Below are positions 4,802 to 64,000 of a stretch of 64,000 bases of DNA, piece by piece. The translations under genes and the position numbers were made by a program. The notes under the pieces were generated by a model, which had not been told where the DNA came from, ran no database searches, and saw only the letters and a list, made by a program, of their open reading frames with translations. Source of the stretch: Acidobacteriota bacterium (GTDB taxonomy: Bacteria > Acidobacteriota > Blastocatellia > RBC074); contig JANPFP010000212.1 in assembly GCA_031423495.1 (NCBI GenBank), positions 9,466-73,465 of the forward strand, in the 5' to 3' direction. How positions within the stretch are numbered: position 1 is the first letter of the stretch; the number at the start of each line of letters is the position of its first letter.

Positions 4802-4870
4802 AGGGCTGAATCATAGCTGAAAAGCCAAAGGCAAAGGAATCACGGCAGAGGAATAATCTTGCGGTTCAAC

Positions 4871-4913
4871 CAGAAAGCGCAAAAGCCACAAAAGCTAATT
4901 TTGCTTTTGTGGC
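4871..4913 (-). terminator. rho-independent terminator of the giant protease gene (bidirectional-looking)
   Basis: 11-bp stem gccacaaaagc/gcttttgtggc with 7-nt loop, T-runs on both sides. Confidence 0.6.
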
Positions 4914-4979
4914 TTCTGTGCTTTTTGGTGGCGAATACCCAATCAAGTCAACGCGAGTGTTCGATTTCTCAACCAGCGC

Positions 4980-7900
4980 TTACTTGATATTCACTTCGAC
5001 GGGATTCGCCCACTTGCCGTCAACTTTAAGCCAGAGCTTGACGAGACCGCTGCCCGCCAACGTACGCGGCAAGAGCAGGTTGGTTTGATCGAGTCCGGCG
5101 AGGCTGCCTTGCTTGTCGAGATACAACACGCTGACTTCAGTACCCACACCAGCGGTGGTTCCGCCGATGAAACATTGCACGTTGCGCAAGTCGCTGCGAT
5201 GGCGAAAGCCCGTGCCATAAAGCACTAAGTAAACCTGATCGGTCGTCGGCCCCAGATCAATCGGCGTCGCAACCATCTTGCTCGTCGTGCTGTCAAAACG
5301 GGCGATGTTCTCATACGTATTAACCCCGTTGCGCACGCGCAGCGCCGATCCGGCGACGACGCCTTGCCCTGAAGCGTTGGACGTGAACAACCCCGGATTG
5401 ACGCCGCTGATCATCAACGCACCGCTTTCCCAGCGTCCGGCGTTGTCGCTGATGATGACTTCGGCAAGGCCGGGCGCGAGTTCAGTTGGCAGCAAATAAT
5501 TCACCTGCGTTTTAGCCACGAAAAATAGCGGCGCGAGGAAGCTGGCTCCGGCGCTGTCATAAATCGTAACCGTCGTACCGCCCAGCGTGGTCGGCAACGG
5601 CAAGCTATTCGCCACCAAAGTGCCGGACGCGAGGTCAGAGCCAAACGCCGCCACAATGCCATCGCGCGTCGCTGACTGATCGCCGTTGTTGCCGTAATGC
5701 GCCGCCGAAACACTGACCGTCACGCGCACTACGCGGCAATCAAGCGCATTCGACGATCCGCCGCCGAGATTCGCCGTCGAAGCCGGATTGAACACAGTCA
5801 CTTTTGCCGTACCCAAATTGGCTACGACTAAATCAGTTGCCGGAATCGTCACGCGCAATTCCATGTCGCTGACAAAAGTCGTCGCACGCTCTGCGCCGTT
5901 CCAACGCACCACGGAATTCGAAAGGAAGTTGCGTCCGTAAACCGTCAGAGTGCGCGCCGCGCCCAGCGCCAGTGCGTCAGGATAAGTCCGCACCGCAGTC
6001 GGCAACGGATTAGCGGTTGCGCTGCCCGCTTGCGTCACGTTCACGGTTTGCCCGGCAATCACCACTTTGAAATTACGTGCGGCTGATGCGGCGTTGGGCT
6101 GCGTCATCAGGGCTACGGTTCCGTTGCCGGTGCCATAAATGCCCGCCGTAATTTGTGCCGCTACGTCGCTGGCCGCCGAAGACCATGAACAACTGTTGGT
6201 CGCCATCACTGAAACATTCGTGCTGCCGCCACCCGCAGGCACGGTCAACGTCCCCGGACTTACGCTGAAGCTGCACGTCGGCGCAGCCGCTTGCGTGATC
6301 GAAAAGGCTTGCCCCAACACCTGAATCGTACCCGTGCGCGCTTGCGTCGTGGTGTTCGTCGCCAGCGAATAACTCACTGCGCCGCGCCTGACGCCGCTCG
6401 CCGTTGCCGCATCGAGCATGATCCACGTCGCGCTGGTGGTCGCAGCCCAACGGCAATCGTGGCCCGTACTCACCGTCACGTTATAAACGCCGCCCGCGTA
6501 ACTGGCGCTATGCGCGACAGGCGTGAAATAGGCCGTGCAACTCACGGGTGCAGCCGCTTGATTCACCGTATAAAGTTTGTCACCGATCATGATCGAACCG
6601 GTGCGCGCGCCGCCGCTGTTCGCCGCGATATTAAAGTTGACTGCGCTGCTCGTCTTGCCGGTAATCACCAGCCAGTCGACGTTGCTGGTCGCGTTGAATA
6701 CGCAACCCAACGGATTGGTCGTCGCGCTCGCCGAGCCTGAGCCTGCCACGGCAGCAACACTGACGACACTCGTCGGCAAGGTCACGCCGCAATTCGCATC
6801 TTGCGACACGATGAAAGTGCGCCCCGCTACGGTCAGCGTCGCTTGCCGCTGATTCCCTGTCGTATTCGGACTCAACGCAAAGCCGACCGTACCGTTGCCG
6901 ACGCCGCTCGCCGCCGTAGTAATCGCCAACCAGCTTTGCCCTGCGGCTTGATTGACCGAAGCTGTCCAGCCACAACCGGCAGTCGTCGTCACCGCCACCG
7001 TACCCAACGAAGCCTGTGAACTGAAGGTCTGCCCGCTGATCGTCGCGTTGTAAGCACAACCACTCGCCTGGGTCAGTGTGAACGTCAATCCGTTGACGGT
7101 AATCGTCGCACTGCGCGCGACGCCCGCGTTGGCCGCGACCGCAAAAACCATTGTGCCGCTGCCGCTGCCCGATGCGCCGCTCGTGATTGTCAACCATGCC
7201 GCGTTGCTCACGGCTGTCCATGTGCAACCCGTACCCGCCGTCACACTGATGCTGCCGGTGCCACTGGTCGCCACCGTTGAAGCACTGGTAACGTTGATCG
7301 TTACCGAACAGTCTCCGGCTTGCGAGACCGTGAAAGACTTGCCGCCGACCGAAATTGCGGCACTGCGCGCTACGCCTGTATTCGCCGCGACGGAATAATT
7401 CACCGTGCCGTTGCCTGTGCCTGTGGCATTCGTGAACGTCAACCAACTCGCATTGCTCACCGCCGTCCAGCCACAACCATTGCCTGCCGTCACGGCAAAG
7501 CTACCCGTACTCGCCGCCGCCGCAACACTCGCGCTGGTCACGCCCAACGTGACGTTACAGCCACCTGCCTGAATCACCGTGAAGGACTGACCGCTTACCG
7601 TAATCGTCGCGGTACGCGCCGCGCCCGTATTCGCCGCGACAGAAAAATTCACCGCGCCATTGCCACTGCCCGACGCACCGCTCGTAATCGTCAACCACGT
7701 TTGATTGCTCACCGCCGACCACGTACAACCAGTTCCTGCCGTCACATTGAAGCTGCCCGTATTGGCAGCCGCCGCGAAGCTTACGCTGCTCGTGTTCAAC
7801 GTGATCGCACAGCCCGCCGCTTGCGTTACTGTGAACGTCTGCCCACCTACGCTAATCACTGCACTGCGGCTCACGCCGGTGTTCGACGTTGCAGAATAAT

Positions 7901-55937: not shown

Positions 55938-56249
55938 TCACAACTTCATATACTGGTTCCACGCCCCGCGAACGGCGGCTTCGTCCTGTGGGCTAAGCTG
56001 CCCAAGCCGTCGGGTGAGCAGCGTCTTTTCTGCCGTCACCAATCGGTCAAGCCGCGCGACTGAGGGCTTTGCCAGTCCGGCCTGCGCCCAATCTTGCAAC
56101 GCAACGTCCCGCGCTCCGGTTCGTAAAACCGAGGTCACGCGACAAATCACGGCATCTTGCTGCAAATCGAAAAGTACCAGCACCGGACGCGCTTTGCTCA
56201 CCGCGCCCGAAGTGAAAGGAAATTGGCAAAGGAAGATTTGGCCGAACAT
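55938..56249 (-). CDS. type II toxin, MazF/PemK family
   Basis: GQIFLCQFPFTSGAVSKARPVLVL…VICRVTS pattern; 3-nt gap to the upstream antitoxin ORF. Confidence 0.7.
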   Translation of the reverse strand: MFGQIFLCQFPFTSGAVSKARPVLVLFDLQQDAVICRVTSVLRTGARDVALQDWAQAGLAKPSVARLDRLVTAEKTLLTRRLGQLSPQDEAAVRGAWNQYMKL

Positions 56250-56252
56250 GTT

Positions 56253-56462
56253 TCAATAATTGTCATAGATGGCGTCTTCAGCCGAATCATCGCGCATAAA
56301 CTGCTCATAACCAGCCAGTCGCCATTCAGCGTCGTCCGCATTGCCGTCGGTTAAAACGATGACACGCACCTGACCTGTTTTGGGAAGCTGCGCGACGACT
56401 TCCTGAGGAATCGCCAGCACCGGTTCAGGGGTCAGAGTCGTGATGAATTCGATTGCTTGCAT
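56253..56462 (-). CDS. putative antitoxin partnered with MazF-like toxin
   Basis: 69-aa ORF immediately upstream of and coupled with the toxin gene. Confidence 0.5.
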   Translation of the reverse strand: MQAIEFITTLTPEPVLAIPQEVVAQLPKTGQVRVIVLTDGNADDAEWRLAGYEQFMRDDSAEDAIYDNY

Positions 56463-59638: not shown

Positions 59639-60088
59639 CTATCTAGCGCATTTCAGGTTTCCAACGAACATAAGCCCAAAGCACTCAGCAATGGCTCCCG
59701 TCCTTTTTACCCATTCTGGAGTAATGTCCCTTTTAATACTTTCGACATCCTCATACCTAACCTCATAGGTTGGCGCGAATCCAGAGAATACTGAGTAGTG
59801 ATTAAAAGTGAAAACTTCATCCTGTAAACTCAAAATTAGACCTCCTAGTTTTTTATATTCAGAAGTCATAAACCCTCCCCTATCCGTCAAAAACCTATAT
59901 TCGCGCCCTGACTTCAGCCTAAGCGTTACCATTACCTCTGCAGTCTGAAGTGCCTTCATTCGCTCTTTTATTTTACTGACTGCTTGTTCCGGCGAGTTAG
60001 CTGAAGCTTGACCTTGCGCTAAAACTGTCGTCGCGTGCATCAGACAAGACAGAGCTATCAGTAGATGGACTATTGTTATCTTTATCAT
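59639..60088 (-). CDS. secreted hypothetical protein (low-GC gene)
   Basis: Start set at ATG 60088 (MIKITIVHLLIALSCLMHATTVLAQG signal peptide); markedly AT-richer than flanks. Confidence 0.55.
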   Translation of the reverse strand: MIKITIVHLLIALSCLMHATTVLAQGQASANSPEQAVSKIKERMKALQTAEVMVTLRLKSGREYRFLTDRGGFMTSEYKKLGGLILSLQDEVFTFNHYSVFSGFAPTYEVRYEDVESIKRDITPEWVKRTGAIAECFGLMFVGNLKCAR

Positions 60089-60107
60089 TTTTACCTCAAA
60101 TATCGGC

Positions 60108-60935
60108 TTAATCAGCCAGCGGATGCACACAAAGAATTCGGTATTCGCCGTCAACCTTGGCAAACATCAGGTGAAACATTTCAAAAATTGGGACACACAC
60201 GACGCGGGTGCCTGCGGGCAAGCCGAGAAATGGTTCGTCATGGATTTCGACAACAGGTTTGTCGGTGCCAGTAAGTGTGAGCTTGGCTAAGAGCTTGTGC
60301 GCGACTTGGGTCAGCTTGAACGAGTTGTCGCCGCGTTCGTGTTTGATTGCCTCCAACGTTCGCTCAAGTAACGCCGTCACACGACGCAAGTCTTCGATGT
60401 TAGCAATGGTGGCGGAATCAGCGCCATCATTCACTAAGTTGCCAAGCACAGGGTCTTGCGCCAACTCGCCGCGCACGCTGGCAGGAATCAGGCGCTCTAT
60501 CATCTTGTCTATTTGATCGGCATCGGGTTCTTTCCCCTGCAACAGCGGCCCCGCCGTTTGATTGATTGCAATCGTGGCAAAAGAGAAAAACACGCCGTGC
60601 GCAGCCACATAAAAGCTGCGCCAGTCTTCAGTCGAAGCCGTGGTAAGCAAATCGGATTGATAGTGCATCCCCGGCAAAAACATAATGCTTGCAGTTGGAG
60701 CCTCTTCGCGTAACGCCGATTTTTCCTGCGCGATAAACCGTTCGATAAAATCAGGCGCGTAAAGTTCACTCACAACGCGGCGCATCTTTCCGTCGGCTTC
60801 CCACTGCTCAAGAAACTTGGCGGACAAATTGGCAGCGGCACGTTGCTCTTCGGCAGTTATCGTTTCCTGTGCCAGTGAAGGAAAGCTTTGAAATGTAAGT
60901 ACGAGCAAAAAGAAAAACTTGATAGCTAGTCGCAC
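60108..60935 (-). CDS. secreted hypothetical protein
   Basis: GTG start 60935 preceded by AAGGAGG at 5-nt spacing; VRLAIKFFFLLVLTFQSFPSLAQE signal peptide; ORF track version (to 61082) runs through the micro-ORF. Confidence 0.6.
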   Translation of the reverse strand: MRLAIKFFFLLVLTFQSFPSLAQETITAEEQRAAANLSAKFLEQWEADGKMRRVVSELYAPDFIERFIAQEKSALREEAPTASIMFLPGMHYQSDLLTTASTEDWRSFYVAAHGVFFSFATIAINQTAGPLLQGKEPDADQIDKMIERLIPASVRGELAQDPVLGNLVNDGADSATIANIEDLRRVTALLERTLEAIKHERGDNSFKLTQVAHKLLAKLTLTGTDKPVVEIHDEPFLGLPAGTRVVCVPIFEMFHLMFAKVDGEYRILCVHPLAD

Positions 60936-61063
60936 ATTTCCTCCTTTGTGCGTTGGCGTTGCAACGCGGCTGAAGCAAACCACTGACTGGCAATCAATCC
61001 CAGCGGCAGCGCGAGAATGATCAGCAGCATGAATAAACAAACCATCGTCAAAACATTGTTCAT
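60926..61063 (-). CDS. 45-aa hydrophobic micro-protein (MNNVLTMVCLFMLLIILALPLGLIASQWFASAALQRQRTKEEMCD)
   Basis: ATG 61063 after GAGGGG; single predicted TM; stop overlaps the GTG start/RBS of the downstream gene (coupling). Confidence 0.45.
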   Translation of the reverse strand: MNNVLTMVCLFMLLIILALPLGLIASQWFASAALQRQRTKEEMCD

Positions 61064-61087
61064 CACAAAACCCCTCAATCATTGCGG

Positions 61088-61192
61088 CTAGTTGACGATC
61101 TCATTCAATACGCCGTGTACCGCCCAGGCGATAACGCCGACAGCGCAGAGAAACATGGCCGCGCACAGTGCCAATACAACAATGACCATCAT
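61088..61192 (-). CDS. 34-aa hydrophobic micro-protein (MMVIVVLALCAAMFLCAVGVIAWAVHGVLNEIVN)
   Basis: GGAGA RBS 4 nt before ATG 61192; single predicted TM; lies 10 nt after the upstream gene stop. Confidence 0.45.
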   Translation of the reverse strand: MMVIVVLALCAAMFLCAVGVIAWAVHGVLNEIVN

Positions 61193-61746: not shown

Positions 61747-61804
61747 GAGGCGAGTTAACAGGTTCTGGAAATTCTGGAAGCTCCAACGGAGCGCGGGAAT
61801 ATAG

Positions 61805-61937
61805 CCCAGGGTGAAGCCCTGGGTTAGGTGGCGATAAATAACAAAAGCCCTGAAAGGGCGTGATAAATCGTTGGCTATCACGCCCTTTCAGGGCTTTTTG
61901 AAATTTCGGTTGCGTAACCCAGGGCTGACACCCTGGG
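61805..61937. promoter_or_regulatory. two dyad elements CCCAGGG-N5/6-CCCTGGG (61805-61823, 61918-61937) flanking the terminator; candidate enhancer (UAS) sites for the NtrC-family activator
   Basis: cccagggtgaagccctggg and cccagggctgacaccctggg read directly; located 60-190 bp upstream of the sigma54 promoter. Confidence 0.35.
61843..61900. terminator. strong bidirectional rho-independent terminator (19-bp stem) after the response-regulator gene
   Basis: gccctgaaagggcgtgata…tatcacgccctttcagggc flanked by aaaa/ttttt. Confidence 0.7.
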
Positions 61938-62037
61938 CTATTTTATTTTGCCCCGTTGGGGCACTCAGAAGTTCTCGTTTGACGTTTGATTGCCAACTAA
62001 AAACTATCGCGCAGCGTTTGCCTGTCAGCCGAAGCTG

Positions 62038-63507
62038 TCACTCGTCATCGGAATCTGGCGCTTCGTCGCCAAAGACGTAGCGGCGTGTGAGTCCCAAATC
62101 TTTGAGTTTTTGTTGGAGGCTTTGGCGATGCATGCCTACGCGCTCAGCGGCGCGGGTGACGTTGCCGCCGGTTTCCTGCAGGCAGCGTTCGATATATGCG
62201 CGTTCGAATTCGCGGCGGGCTTCGCGGAAGTCGGCGAGAAACGGAATCTGTAGCGCGTTATCATCGGCAGGTTGGGACGGTTCGATTTTGGTTGGTGATG
62301 CGAGTGAAGCAACCGCCACTTGCGGCTTGGCGGATTCCTGCGTGAGTTCGGCAGGCAGGTCGCTCACCTGCAGACTCTCGCCATCGGTCAGCACGACGCT
62401 GCGTTCGAGCGCGTTGCGCAATTCGCGTACGTTGCCGGGCCAGTCATAAGCGATGAGGCGTTGCATGGCTGCGGCGCTGATCTCGGTGCATTTGAGTTGA
62501 TAGCGCGCGGCGTAACTCTGCAAAAAATGTGTCGCCAGCAACGGGATGTCTTCGCGACGCTCGCGCAGGGGCGGCAGCTCGAGTTCGACTACGCGCAAAC
62601 GGTAAAAGAGGTCGGCGCGAAACGTGCCCGCGTCAACGGCCTGTTGCAAGTCGCGGTTGGTGGCGCTGACGACGCGCACGTCAACTGATACGGTTTGCGA
62701 ACTGCCGAGGCGTTCGATCTTGCGTTCTTCAAGTACGCGCAAGAGCTTGGCTTGCGTGTTCAAACTCATATCGCCGATTTCGTCGAGAAAGATCGTGCCG
62801 CCGTGCGCGAGTTCGAACTTGCCTTTGCGTTGCGCGGCGGCTCCGGTGAAGGCACCTTTTTCGTGGCCGAACAGTTCCGATTCGATCAACTCGGAAGGCA
62901 GCGCGGCGCAATTCATCGCAATGAATTCGCCTTTGCGGCGCGCCTGGCTCTGTTCGTGAATGGCGCGCGCTACGAGTTCCTTGCCCGTACCCGATTCGCC
63001 GCGAATCAGCACCGTGACATCGGTCGCGGCTACCTTGTTAATCAAATCGTAAATGCGCCGCATCGGTTCACTGGTGCCGAGCAAATCGCCCACGCCCCGC
63101 GCGGCTTTGAGCGCAGCGCGCAGTTGCTCGTTCTCGCGTTTGAGCGAACGCGTTTCGAGCGCGTTTTTGACGACGAGGCGGAGTTCGTCCACTTCAAAAG
63201 GCTTGGCGAGATAATCGTAAGCGCCCGCCTTGATGGCTTCGACGGCCGTGCGTTCGTTGCCGTGCGCGGTAAGCATTACGACAGGTGGCGCATCGGGTTG
63301 CGTTTGCAGTTCGCGCAAATAATCGAGCCCGCTCACACCGGGCAGATTGATGTCGAGCAAGAGCAAATCAGGTTTGTCGGCGGCGATGAGTTGGCGAGCT
63401 TCCGGCACAGAACCGGCTTCACGGATAGCGTAATTTTTCAGCGCGCGTTGCATGCCGTAACGCGCAGCTTCTTCGTCGTCAATAATGAGAATTTTGGCTT
63501 CAGACAT
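62038..63507 (-). CDS. sigma54-dependent Fis-family response regulator (NtrC-like)
   Basis: Receiver domain (ILIIDDEEAARYG…DLLLLDINLPGVSGLD), AAA+ sigma54-interaction domain (GESGTGKELVARAIH, GAFTGA), C-terminal Fis-type HTH. Confidence 0.9.
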   Translation of the reverse strand: MSEAKILIIDDEEAARYGMQRALKNYAIREAGSVPEARQLIAADKPDLLLLDINLPGVSGLDYLRELQTQPDAPPVVMLTAHGNERTAVEAIKAGAYDYLAKPFEVDELRLVVKNALETRSLKRENEQLRAALKAARGVGDLLGTSEPMRRIYDLINKVAATDVTVLIRGESGTGKELVARAIHEQSQARRKGEFIAMNCAALPSELIESELFGHEKGAFTGAAAQRKGKFELAHGGTIFLDEIGDMSLNTQAKLLRVLEERKIERLGSSQTVSVDVRVVSATNRDLQQAVDAGTFRADLFYRLRVVELELPPLRERREDIPLLATHFLQSYAARYQLKCTEISAAAMQRLIAYDWPGNVRELRNALERSVVLTDGESLQVSDLPAELTQESAKPQVAVASLASPTKIEPSQPADDNALQIPFLADFREARREFERAYIERCLQETGGNVTRAAERVGMHRQSLQQKLKDLGLTRRYVFGDEAPDSDDE

Positions 63508-63540: not shown

Positions 63541-64000
63541 TCACTTTAGCACATCCAAAATCGGCAGCGTCACGGCAAACCTTGTACCGCATTCCCCACT
63601 GAGCGGACTCACGCATTGAATCGCACCTCCTAACTCGCGCACGCGCCGCGCGACGATTGCCAAACCCAATCCCGTACCGCGCTGCGTGGTCGTAAAAAAC
63701 GGTTCAAAGATTTTGCTTTGCTGTTCCGCCGGAATGCCTTCACCTTCGTCACTGACGGTGAATTGCCAGCGCGCGTCATCAAGGCTTTCGGAAAGTTTGG
63801 CGCTCGCAATCGTTACCGTGCCAGCTTGTCGCATTGCTTGCACGCCGTTGAGCGTGAGGTTGAGCAGAACTTCTTTGAGCGCCGCCACCGTAGCGCCGTC
63901 GAGTTGCGGATCGATTGACAAGTCGAGTGTGAGTTGCACTTCGCGTTCGGCGGCCTGGTTGCGCGCGAGCGTGACAACGGTCTCAGCCAGTTCAGAAAAC
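63541..64000 (-). CDS. sensor histidine kinase, C-terminal part (gene continues beyond window end)
   Basis: HATPase_c motifs (…NLTLNGVQAM…, DEGEGIP, GTGLGLAIV); frame remains open upstream of 63939 to the window edge. Confidence 0.8.
   Translation of the reverse strand, partial: FSELAETVVTLARNQAAEREVQLTLDLSIDPQLDGATVAALKEVLLNLTLNGVQAMRQAGTVTIASAKLSESLDDARWQFTVSDEGEGIPAEQQSKIFEPFFTTTQRGTGLGLAIVARRVRELGGAIQCVSPLSGECGTRFAVTLPILDVLK

Follow-up and report, generated by a model that had tools for sequence, protein, structure and literature searches.

Two conserved genes for predicted single-helix membrane peptides in a putative sigma-54-dependent operon of soil Acidobacteria

The window analysed here, a stretch of 64,000 nucleotides (nt; 64 kb) from the metagenome-assembled genome (MAG) of an Acidobacteriota bacterium of the Blastocatellia (contig JANPFP010000212.1), contains two micro open reading frames (ORFs), ORF1 of 34 amino acids (aa; 61192->61088) and ORF2 of 45 aa (61063->60926), which lie on the minus strand, as do all the genes described below, with coordinates given throughout in the numbering of the window. 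They are the second and the third genes of a packed operon A-ORF1-ORF2-D-E-F, whose members, spaced by 9, 24, -10, 19 and 22 nt, are presumably co-transcribed. As judged from the comparison of related loci, both ORFs are protein-coding genes under purifying selection, and each product is predicted to form a single membrane-spanning helix. The first-pass annotation, made from the letters of the DNA, had described two intact micro-ORFs at 61088-61192 and 60926-61063, with a Shine-Dalgarno site for the first and the overlap of the second with the start of gene D, and all of this holds; its statement that they were unannotated does not, as both had already been called as genes in the NCBI and Logan records, the matching contigs carrying gene calls of 34/33 aa and 45 aa, and the ORF2 orthologue of the related locus L003 being listed at NCBI as 'hypothetical protein HOP19_21440' of a MAG.

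The lineages for comparison were gathered from the contexts of gene A homologues, gene A having replaced the orphan gene D as the synteny anchor. The ORF1-ORF2 pair was found, in the same order and position, in seven distinct lineages, namely the window, L003 (= L008), L037, L004, L087, L088 and L089; the loci L001 and L002 represent the same organism (99.9-100% identical) and add no comparative information. ORF1 is exactly 34 aa long in all seven, and ORF2, with its 45 aa in the window, reaches 54-60 aa in the orthologues. The proposed frame is the only one of the six that is free of stop codons in all seven lineages. The variable alignment columns are distributed over the first, second and third codon positions as 18/9/26 in ORF1 and 22/15/29 in ORF2, the third positions being the most variable, and the pairwise ratios of non-synonymous to synonymous substitution rates (dN/dS) are 0.12-0.44 for ORF1 and 0.09-0.41 for ORF2, with an excess of synonymous changes at p = 4e-5 to 0.03 in the six pairs tested. 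Thus, the conservation of the pair, the single open frame, the third-position variability and the dN/dS values argue for protein-coding genes under purifying selection, and the check by frame conservation in related genomes, which the first-pass annotation had put forward, came out in favour of both genes, with the frame open in 7/7 lineages and dN/dS within 0.09-0.44.

The initiation signals of the pair are closely interlaced with those of the neighbouring genes. ORF1 reads ATGATG...TAG and encodes MMVIVVLALCAAMFLCAVGVIAWAVHGVLNEIVN; its Shine-Dalgarno sequence AGGAGA (61202-61197) overlaps the TAA stop codon of gene A (61204-61202), and the distance from this stop to the ORF1 ATG is 9-10 nt in 7/7 lineages, the junction reading TAAGGAG or TAAAGGAG. 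ORF2 encodes MNNVLTMVCLFMLLIILALPLGLIASQWFASAALQRQRTKEEMCD and starts at an ATG (61063) that is backed by the alignment, the orthologues beginning with MNTVL or MRVLL. Its Shine-Dalgarno sequence GAGGGG (61076-61071), placed 7 nt 5' of the ATG, is peculiar to the window lineage, where the gap between ORF1 and ORF2 is 24 nt; in five of the seven lineages this gap is 10 nt and lacks a Shine-Dalgarno site, so that ORF2, starting 10 nt past the ORF1 stop, would be translated there by re-initiation coupled to termination. ORF2 and gene D share 10 nt (60935-60926), where the 3' end of ORF2 runs over the GTG start of D, and the AAGGAGG of D (60946-60940) sits within the K-E-E codons of ORF2. The translational coupling proposed earlier is therefore consistent with the sequence signals at two junctions, the overlap of the A stop with the ORF1 Shine-Dalgarno site and the 10-nt overlap of ORF2 with gene D. 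In L004 only, a perfect hairpin with a 16-bp stem, AGGGTGTAGAGCGGGTTATTAACCCGCTCTACACCCT, lies between ORF1 and ORF2 (5536-5597) and extends the gap from 10 to 62 nt.

Both peptides contain one strongly hydrophobic segment of 19 residues, with Kyte-Doolittle values of 3.05 for ORF1 and 2.89 for ORF2, which agrees with the single-transmembrane prediction made before; ORF1 has a net charge of -1 and a grand average of hydropathy (GRAVY) of 2.1, and the AlphaFold2 model of ORF2 is a single helix spanning residues 2-44 with a predicted local distance difference test score (pLDDT) of 79. Each is thus likely to be inserted in the membrane as a single spanning helix. Since the basic cluster of ORF2 lies C-terminal to the helix, the positive-inside rule would place ORF2 with its N-terminus out and its C-terminus in. 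Across the seven lineages, the invariant residues of ORF1 are C10, W23, H26-G-V-L29 and E31, and C9 is invariant in ORF2, which also has an L-A-L-P-L motif and, past the helix, a basic stretch; the conserved cysteine of ORF2 is placed inside the helix, and ORF1 has neither lysines nor C-terminal cysteines. The two are not paralogues of each other (hhalign probability 0.4%). By coding conservation, hydropathy and the helix model, ORF1 and ORF2 would belong to the generic class of small membrane proteins (up to about 50 aa, one helix, conserved coding).

The operon is preceded by a putative promoter of the sigma-54 type, TGGCAT-N5-TTGCT (TGGCATcgcccTTGCT, 61746-61731), with -24/-12 elements 112 nt 5' of gene A and one mismatch to the consensus TGGCAC-N5-TTGCW. 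Only two such one-mismatch sites occur in the 64 kb, this one included. Sites with at most one mismatch to the consensus were found within 300 nt 5' of gene A in 20 of the 84 related loci and in none of the 64 control regions, and TGGCA(C/T)-N5-TTGC is kept in all the close relatives. The -24/-12 spacing, the conservation of the predicted promoter and the adjacent activator gene are those expected of a sigma-54-dependent operon. This activator is a sigma-54-dependent response regulator (62038-63507) with the receiver, AAA+ Sigma54_activat and HTH_8 domains of Pfam, for which the exact sequence look-up gave no match, and it is preceded by the 3' part of a histidine kinase gene (63541-64000) truncated by the window end; in the relatives, the full-length kinase is about 694 aa long and combines six or more membrane segments with a GAF domain, HisKA and HATPase_c. 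An intrinsic terminator with a 20-bp stem and a T tract (61894-61847) stands 3' of the activator gene, between it and the operon of gene A, so that the micro-ORFs would not share a transcript with the kinase and regulator genes. Accordingly, the earlier placement of the pair inside a sigma-54 operon stood as to the operon's own conserved promoter and failed as to a common unit with the two-component genes: the micro-ORFs belong to a neighbouring operon that presumably depends on the activator.

Between the promoter and gene A there is a conserved 5' leader (61718-61641), the stretch from the promoter to the leader end being about 110 nt. It consists of an invariant box GCAACCGTTGAGGAT (61718-61704) near the expected start site, a hairpin CTTGCGCCGTG...CACGGCGCAAG (61693-61649) and a T tract (61646-61641). 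In the hairpin, the 10 bp at the base, CTTGCGCCG/CGGCGCAAG, are conserved and the interior varies, and in three of the 12 sequences the stem shows a compensatory change from G-C to A-U. The folding energy of the leader is -34.1 kcal/mol (z = -4.25). It is conserved in 12 loci (L003, L004, L005, L007, L009, L010, L011, L013, L017, L044, L088 and L089) and matched by no Rfam family. The leader looks like a terminator or attenuator and is possibly a cis-regulatory element, as yet uncharacterised, of this family of sigma-54 operons; it is at least as interesting as the micro-ORFs themselves. Another RNA element lies further upstream: the Acido-Lenti-1 RNA motif (RF01687), a motif without known function (Weinberg et al. 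2010, PMC2864571), was matched at 61918-61963 on the plus strand with 44.8 bits, above the gathering score, and a weaker inverted copy at 61779-61823 on the minus strand with 31.2 bits. One copy lies on either side of the terminator hairpin that separates the regulator gene from the sigma-54 promoter, and Acido-Lenti-1 is the sole Rfam family matched in the whole window.

Gene A (61618-61202, 138 aa), the invariable 5' partner of the pair in 7/7 lineages, has 708 homologues, all from MAGs of Acidobacteriota, Blastocatellia or Pyrinomonadaceae. According to the AlphaFold2 model and hydropathy, its product starts with a signal peptide and a helix, which are followed by a five-strand barrel and, at the C-terminus, a glycine-rich membrane helix, and the best fold matches of the barrel are the Hfq/Sm-like and SH3-like barrels. 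Two other features of the gene were considered and set aside: a terminator-like match in its 3' end (61258-61233), taken as a chance hit as six such sites were found with 6.4 expected, and an N-terminal extension of A into the conserved leader, as a 169-aa ORF with a TTG start, which is in frame in the window and L007 and is broken by 1-nt indels between close relatives.

Gene D (60935-60108, 275 aa, GTG start, signal peptide) is an orphan of this organism, its sole match among 5.8 billion proteins being itself. With its insertion, the C-terminal tail of ORF2 appears to have become shorter and to have been remodelled. A reading of gene D as 324 aa, running across ORF2 in another frame and called on one Logan contig, was rejected, ORF2 being conserved in lineages that have no gene D. 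Gene E (60088-59639) encodes 149 aa with a signal peptide; its start is ambiguous (59639-60163), and both the 149-aa signal-peptide form and a 76-aa form are found among the public gene calls. The location of the pair between secreted proteins, as described at first, is confirmed by the signal peptides of the flanking products. Gene F (59616-58174, 480 aa) combines an N-terminal hydrophobic helix with a phosphodiesterase domain of the alkaline-phosphatase superfamily (Pfam PF01663 Phosphodiest, E = 4.8e-9); a PDB sequence search with it gave no relative. Among the relatives it recurs in a distal position of the operon, 3' of gene A in L004, L005, L007, L009, L013 and L017. Further downstream, just past a xylose-isomerase-like gene (57974-56568), a gene for a 103-aa toxin of the PemK/MazF type (Pfam PF02452, E = 3e-9) lies within 55938-56462 and is preceded by a 69-aa ORF without a Pfam match, the two forming probably a type II toxin-antitoxin pair.

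The ORF1-ORF2 pair is limited to the clade whose gene A is at least 74% identical to that of the window, a narrow group of uncultured soil Acidobacteria (Blastocatellia). Hidden Markov models built from all the pair members detected no further copy in about 75 other gene A loci of the GTDB species representatives or elsewhere in the window; these pair-less loci are of Blastocatellia and Pyrinomonadaceae, with the conserved core of kinase, regulator, A and phosphodiesterase. Refined models, run over about 80 gene A loci and the rest of the window, likewise gave no divergent copy. A phmmer search of ORF2 against 1.84 billion representatives returned itself and one relative only, and the combined ORF1 and ORF2 profile matched six proteins among 5.8 billion. 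There was no match in Pfam and NCBIfam (E <= 1; ORF1, ORF2 and orthologues) or in PADLOC. Two scans of the metagenome contigs of the Joint Genome Institute (JGI) at the DNA level, with ORF1 and ORF2 and with ORF2 profiles, gave pattern matches of which none was confirmed by tblastn; as the known JGI locus L004 was missed by them as well, this negative carries no information.

In the wider family, the core consists of the kinase, the sigma-54 regulator, gene A and usually the phosphodiesterase F, and the slot between A and F is filled differently from one locus to another. In L009 and L013 nothing stands there; L005 has a second copy of A together with a protein of 306 aa, L007 a protein of 186 aa, L010 a membrane protein of 99 aa and L017 a multi-helix protein of 139 aa. 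The ORF1-ORF2 pair is the occupant of this slot specific to its clade. Within the clade, the gene 3' of ORF2 varies too: the window has D, L004 the phosphodiesterase and L087 HEPN, and proteins of 164 aa and 168 aa are encoded at this place in L003/L089 and L088, respectively. In L003 (about 4840-4975) and L004 (4869-4979), a third hydrophobic micro-ORF (e.g. MSIVFLCSSFGGPFILLGALLVFAVVPLALIAISIRYGFCAKS), which is absent from the window, stands between the leader hairpin and gene A, and this suggests that the operon repeatedly gains small membrane peptides. Genes of another kind, of the Uma2 family, PemK-type toxins and HEPN, are inserted in the relatives between the kinase and regulator genes or 3' of ORF2 (L003 2102-2971; L004 1674-3085; L005 1440-2839; L007 2594-3253; L087 829-1104). 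It seems that small genes of a mobile or toxin-antitoxin type tend to land at the kinase-regulator junction, which bears no insert in the window.

Taken together, these data make it plausible, with somewhat less than even confidence, that ORF1 and ORF2 are clade-specific single-pass membrane partner subunits of the gene A product, made in step with it. The kinase and the sigma-54 activator would presumably switch on the promoter 5' of A, and the transcript would pass the conserved leader hairpin and continue through A-ORF1-ORF2-D-E-F. The translation of ORF1 would be coupled to that of A, whose stop codon lies within the ORF1 ribosome-binding site, and ORF2, lacking a ribosome-binding site of its own in most lineages, would be coupled in turn. 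The product of A would be an exported Sm/SH3-like barrel anchored by its C-terminal glycine-rich helix, and the two peptides may act inside the membrane together with this tail helix as accessory subunits that stabilise or tune the assembly of A. It is the fixed A-ORF1-ORF2 junctions, as set beside the changing gene after ORF2, that favour a partnership with A, and the interaction itself we infer from this arrangement. Several points weigh on the other side. The pair arose once, in a single clade, and its adjacency to A counts statistically as that one event only, so that co-occurrence statistics cannot separate a partnership with A from its rivals; A functions without ORF1 and ORF2 in about 75 other loci; the orientation of ORF1 in the membrane is not predictable, there being no basic residues in it; the leader hairpin with its T tract could terminate most of the transcripts; and the source organism is an uncultured MAG.

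The action of small membrane proteins encoded in a two-component regulon back on the kinase is established (10.1101/438515; review PMC12648545), and with such a precedent ORF1 and ORF2 might be feedback modulators, induced by the kinase/activator pair and then binding the membrane domain of the kinase to damp or boost its signalling. The position of the peptides in a sigma-54-promoter operon adjoining the activator gene would suit this role, whose logic is that of MgrB or SafA towards PhoQ, as would the intramembrane surface that the polytopic kinase of the relatives, with its six or more membrane segments, could provide. However, about 75 loci have this kinase and regulator and lack the peptides, Pfam and NCBIfam revealed no relation to MgrB, SafA or any other family, the predicted topology of ORF2 is opposite to that of MgrB, and the coupling of the peptides is to A and not to the kinase gene, all of which makes the feedback role rather unlikely. 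Still less probable is a role of the peptides as partners in the membrane, or as regulators, of the phosphodiesterase F or the remaining exported products of the operon, by analogy with PmrR-LpxT and AcrZ-AcrB: F, which recurs distally in the operon, has one N-terminal hydrophobic helix and in L004 directly follows ORF2, but it is widespread without the peptides, and in the window two genes separate it from ORF2, the tight coupling being with A.

Two adjacent and very hydrophobic small ORFs beside a two-component system bear a superficial resemblance to two-peptide bacteriocin loci, and toxin-antitoxin and Uma2/HEPN genes lie nearby in the relatives, so a membrane-damaging function (type I toxin-like, leaderless bacteriocin-like or that of a two-peptide bacteriocin-like pair) may be thought of. 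It is very improbable, as a double-glycine leader is lacking, A, D, E and F carry no transporter or peptidase domain of Pfam, PADLOC gives no match, the charge and GRAVY value of ORF1 are those of an integral helix rather than of a cationic amphipathic peptide, and the ORFs are internal to a packed operon and under ordinary purifying selection; with this, the bacteriocin-like character suggested by the first-pass annotation loses its ground. That the ORFs, being short and hydrophobic, are not functional proteins at all but chance frames held open by an RNA- or DNA-level constraint is hardly credible in view of the variability that tracks the codon position, the dN/dS well below 1, the one frame of six open throughout, the conserved length of ORF1, the conserved ribosome-binding sites, and the Rfam scan, in which no family overlapped ORF1 or ORF2.

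Beyond the proposed partnership of the pair with A, a broader and more speculative picture, which we consider unlikely though worth stating, is that ORF1, ORF2 and the third micro-ORF of the two relatives are newly evolved intramembrane adaptors rewiring a widespread envelope module of the Blastocatellia, composed of the polytopic kinase, the sigma-54 activator, the tail-anchored Sm-like ring protein and the phosphodiesterase. Such adaptors might assemble with the glycine-rich helix of A or feed back on the kinase, and, if this were true, the A-phosphodiesterase slot would act as a hot spot for the birth of small membrane proteins specific to single lineages. For the most part, the present result is a confirmation at the level of annotation quality and an ordinary example of bacterial small membrane proteins. 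These proteins are under-annotated and mostly uncharacterised, especially outside the model bacteria, and two comparatively validated examples from uncultured soil Acidobacteria are added here as two new sequence families in a clear regulatory context. If a partnership with A or a modulation of the kinase were borne out, the pair would illustrate how lineage-specific membrane accessories are added to a conserved envelope signalling module.

Among the known systems, MgrB, the 47-aa inhibitor of the enterobacterial PhoQ, and SafA are similar to ORF1 and ORF2 in being small single-pass membrane proteins in the regulon of an adjoining two-component system, with conserved Trp and Cys residues in or near the helix. 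However, MgrB is oriented with its N-terminus in and its C-terminus out and has cytoplasmic N-terminal lysines and two essential conserved periplasmic cysteines, C28 and C39 (10.1101/438515), whereas ORF2 has its basic cluster past the helix, with an opposite topology predicted by the positive-inside rule only, and lacks the cysteine pair; the tail of ORF1 has just 9 residues, and the regulator is a sigma-54 activator and not one of the OmpR type. ORF1 and ORF2 are thus, so far as sequence and predicted topology indicate, not members of the MgrB family, and the MgrB-, KdpF- or SafA-like identity proposed for them at first was not sustained, as neither they nor their orthologues matched any of these families in Pfam or NCBIfam at E <= 1. 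KdpF of kdpFABC, CydX of cydABX and AcrZ with AcrB are likewise single helices of 30-50 aa, translated together with a partner in the membrane and presumed to make helix-helix contacts with it. This is the pattern favoured above for A with ORF1 and ORF2, and it is a functional analogy only: there is no sequence relation, Pfam finds neither a KdpF match nor a transporter domain in A, D, E and the phosphodiesterase, and the partner proposed here would be a tail-anchored Sm/SH3-like exported protein and not a transporter or oxidase.

The phage-shock (Psp) system also has a sigma-54 operon with a dedicated activator (PspF) and several small membrane proteins (PspB/PspC/PspD/PspG), but no operon protein here carries a Psp domain of Pfam, the activator, unlike one of the PspF type, contains a receiver domain and is paired with a polytopic kinase, and the operon ends in a phosphodiesterase; ORF1 and ORF2 are not Psp components. 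Nor are they two-peptide bacteriocins of class IIb, which are likewise encoded by neighbouring genes, both small and hydrophobic, close to a kinase/regulator pair, and which have a double-glycine leader, a dedicated ABC transporter with a C39 peptidase and an immunity gene in the vicinity: the helix of ORF1 and ORF2 begins at residue 2-3 with no double-glycine leader, the peptides are uncharged or acidic integral helices, Pfam detected no transporter or peptidase in A, D, E, F or the regulator, and the host is a didermic Acidobacterium. The type I toxins (Hok/TisB/Ibs-like) are encoded by small hydrophobic ORFs that stand alone and are repressed by an antisense or overlapping small RNA; ORF1 and ORF2 are internal and translationally coupled in a six-gene operon, with no Rfam RNA overlapping them, though an antisense RNA of a new kind may exist. 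In kind, ORF1 and ORF2 are bacterial small membrane proteins, of the class reviewed in PMC12648545.

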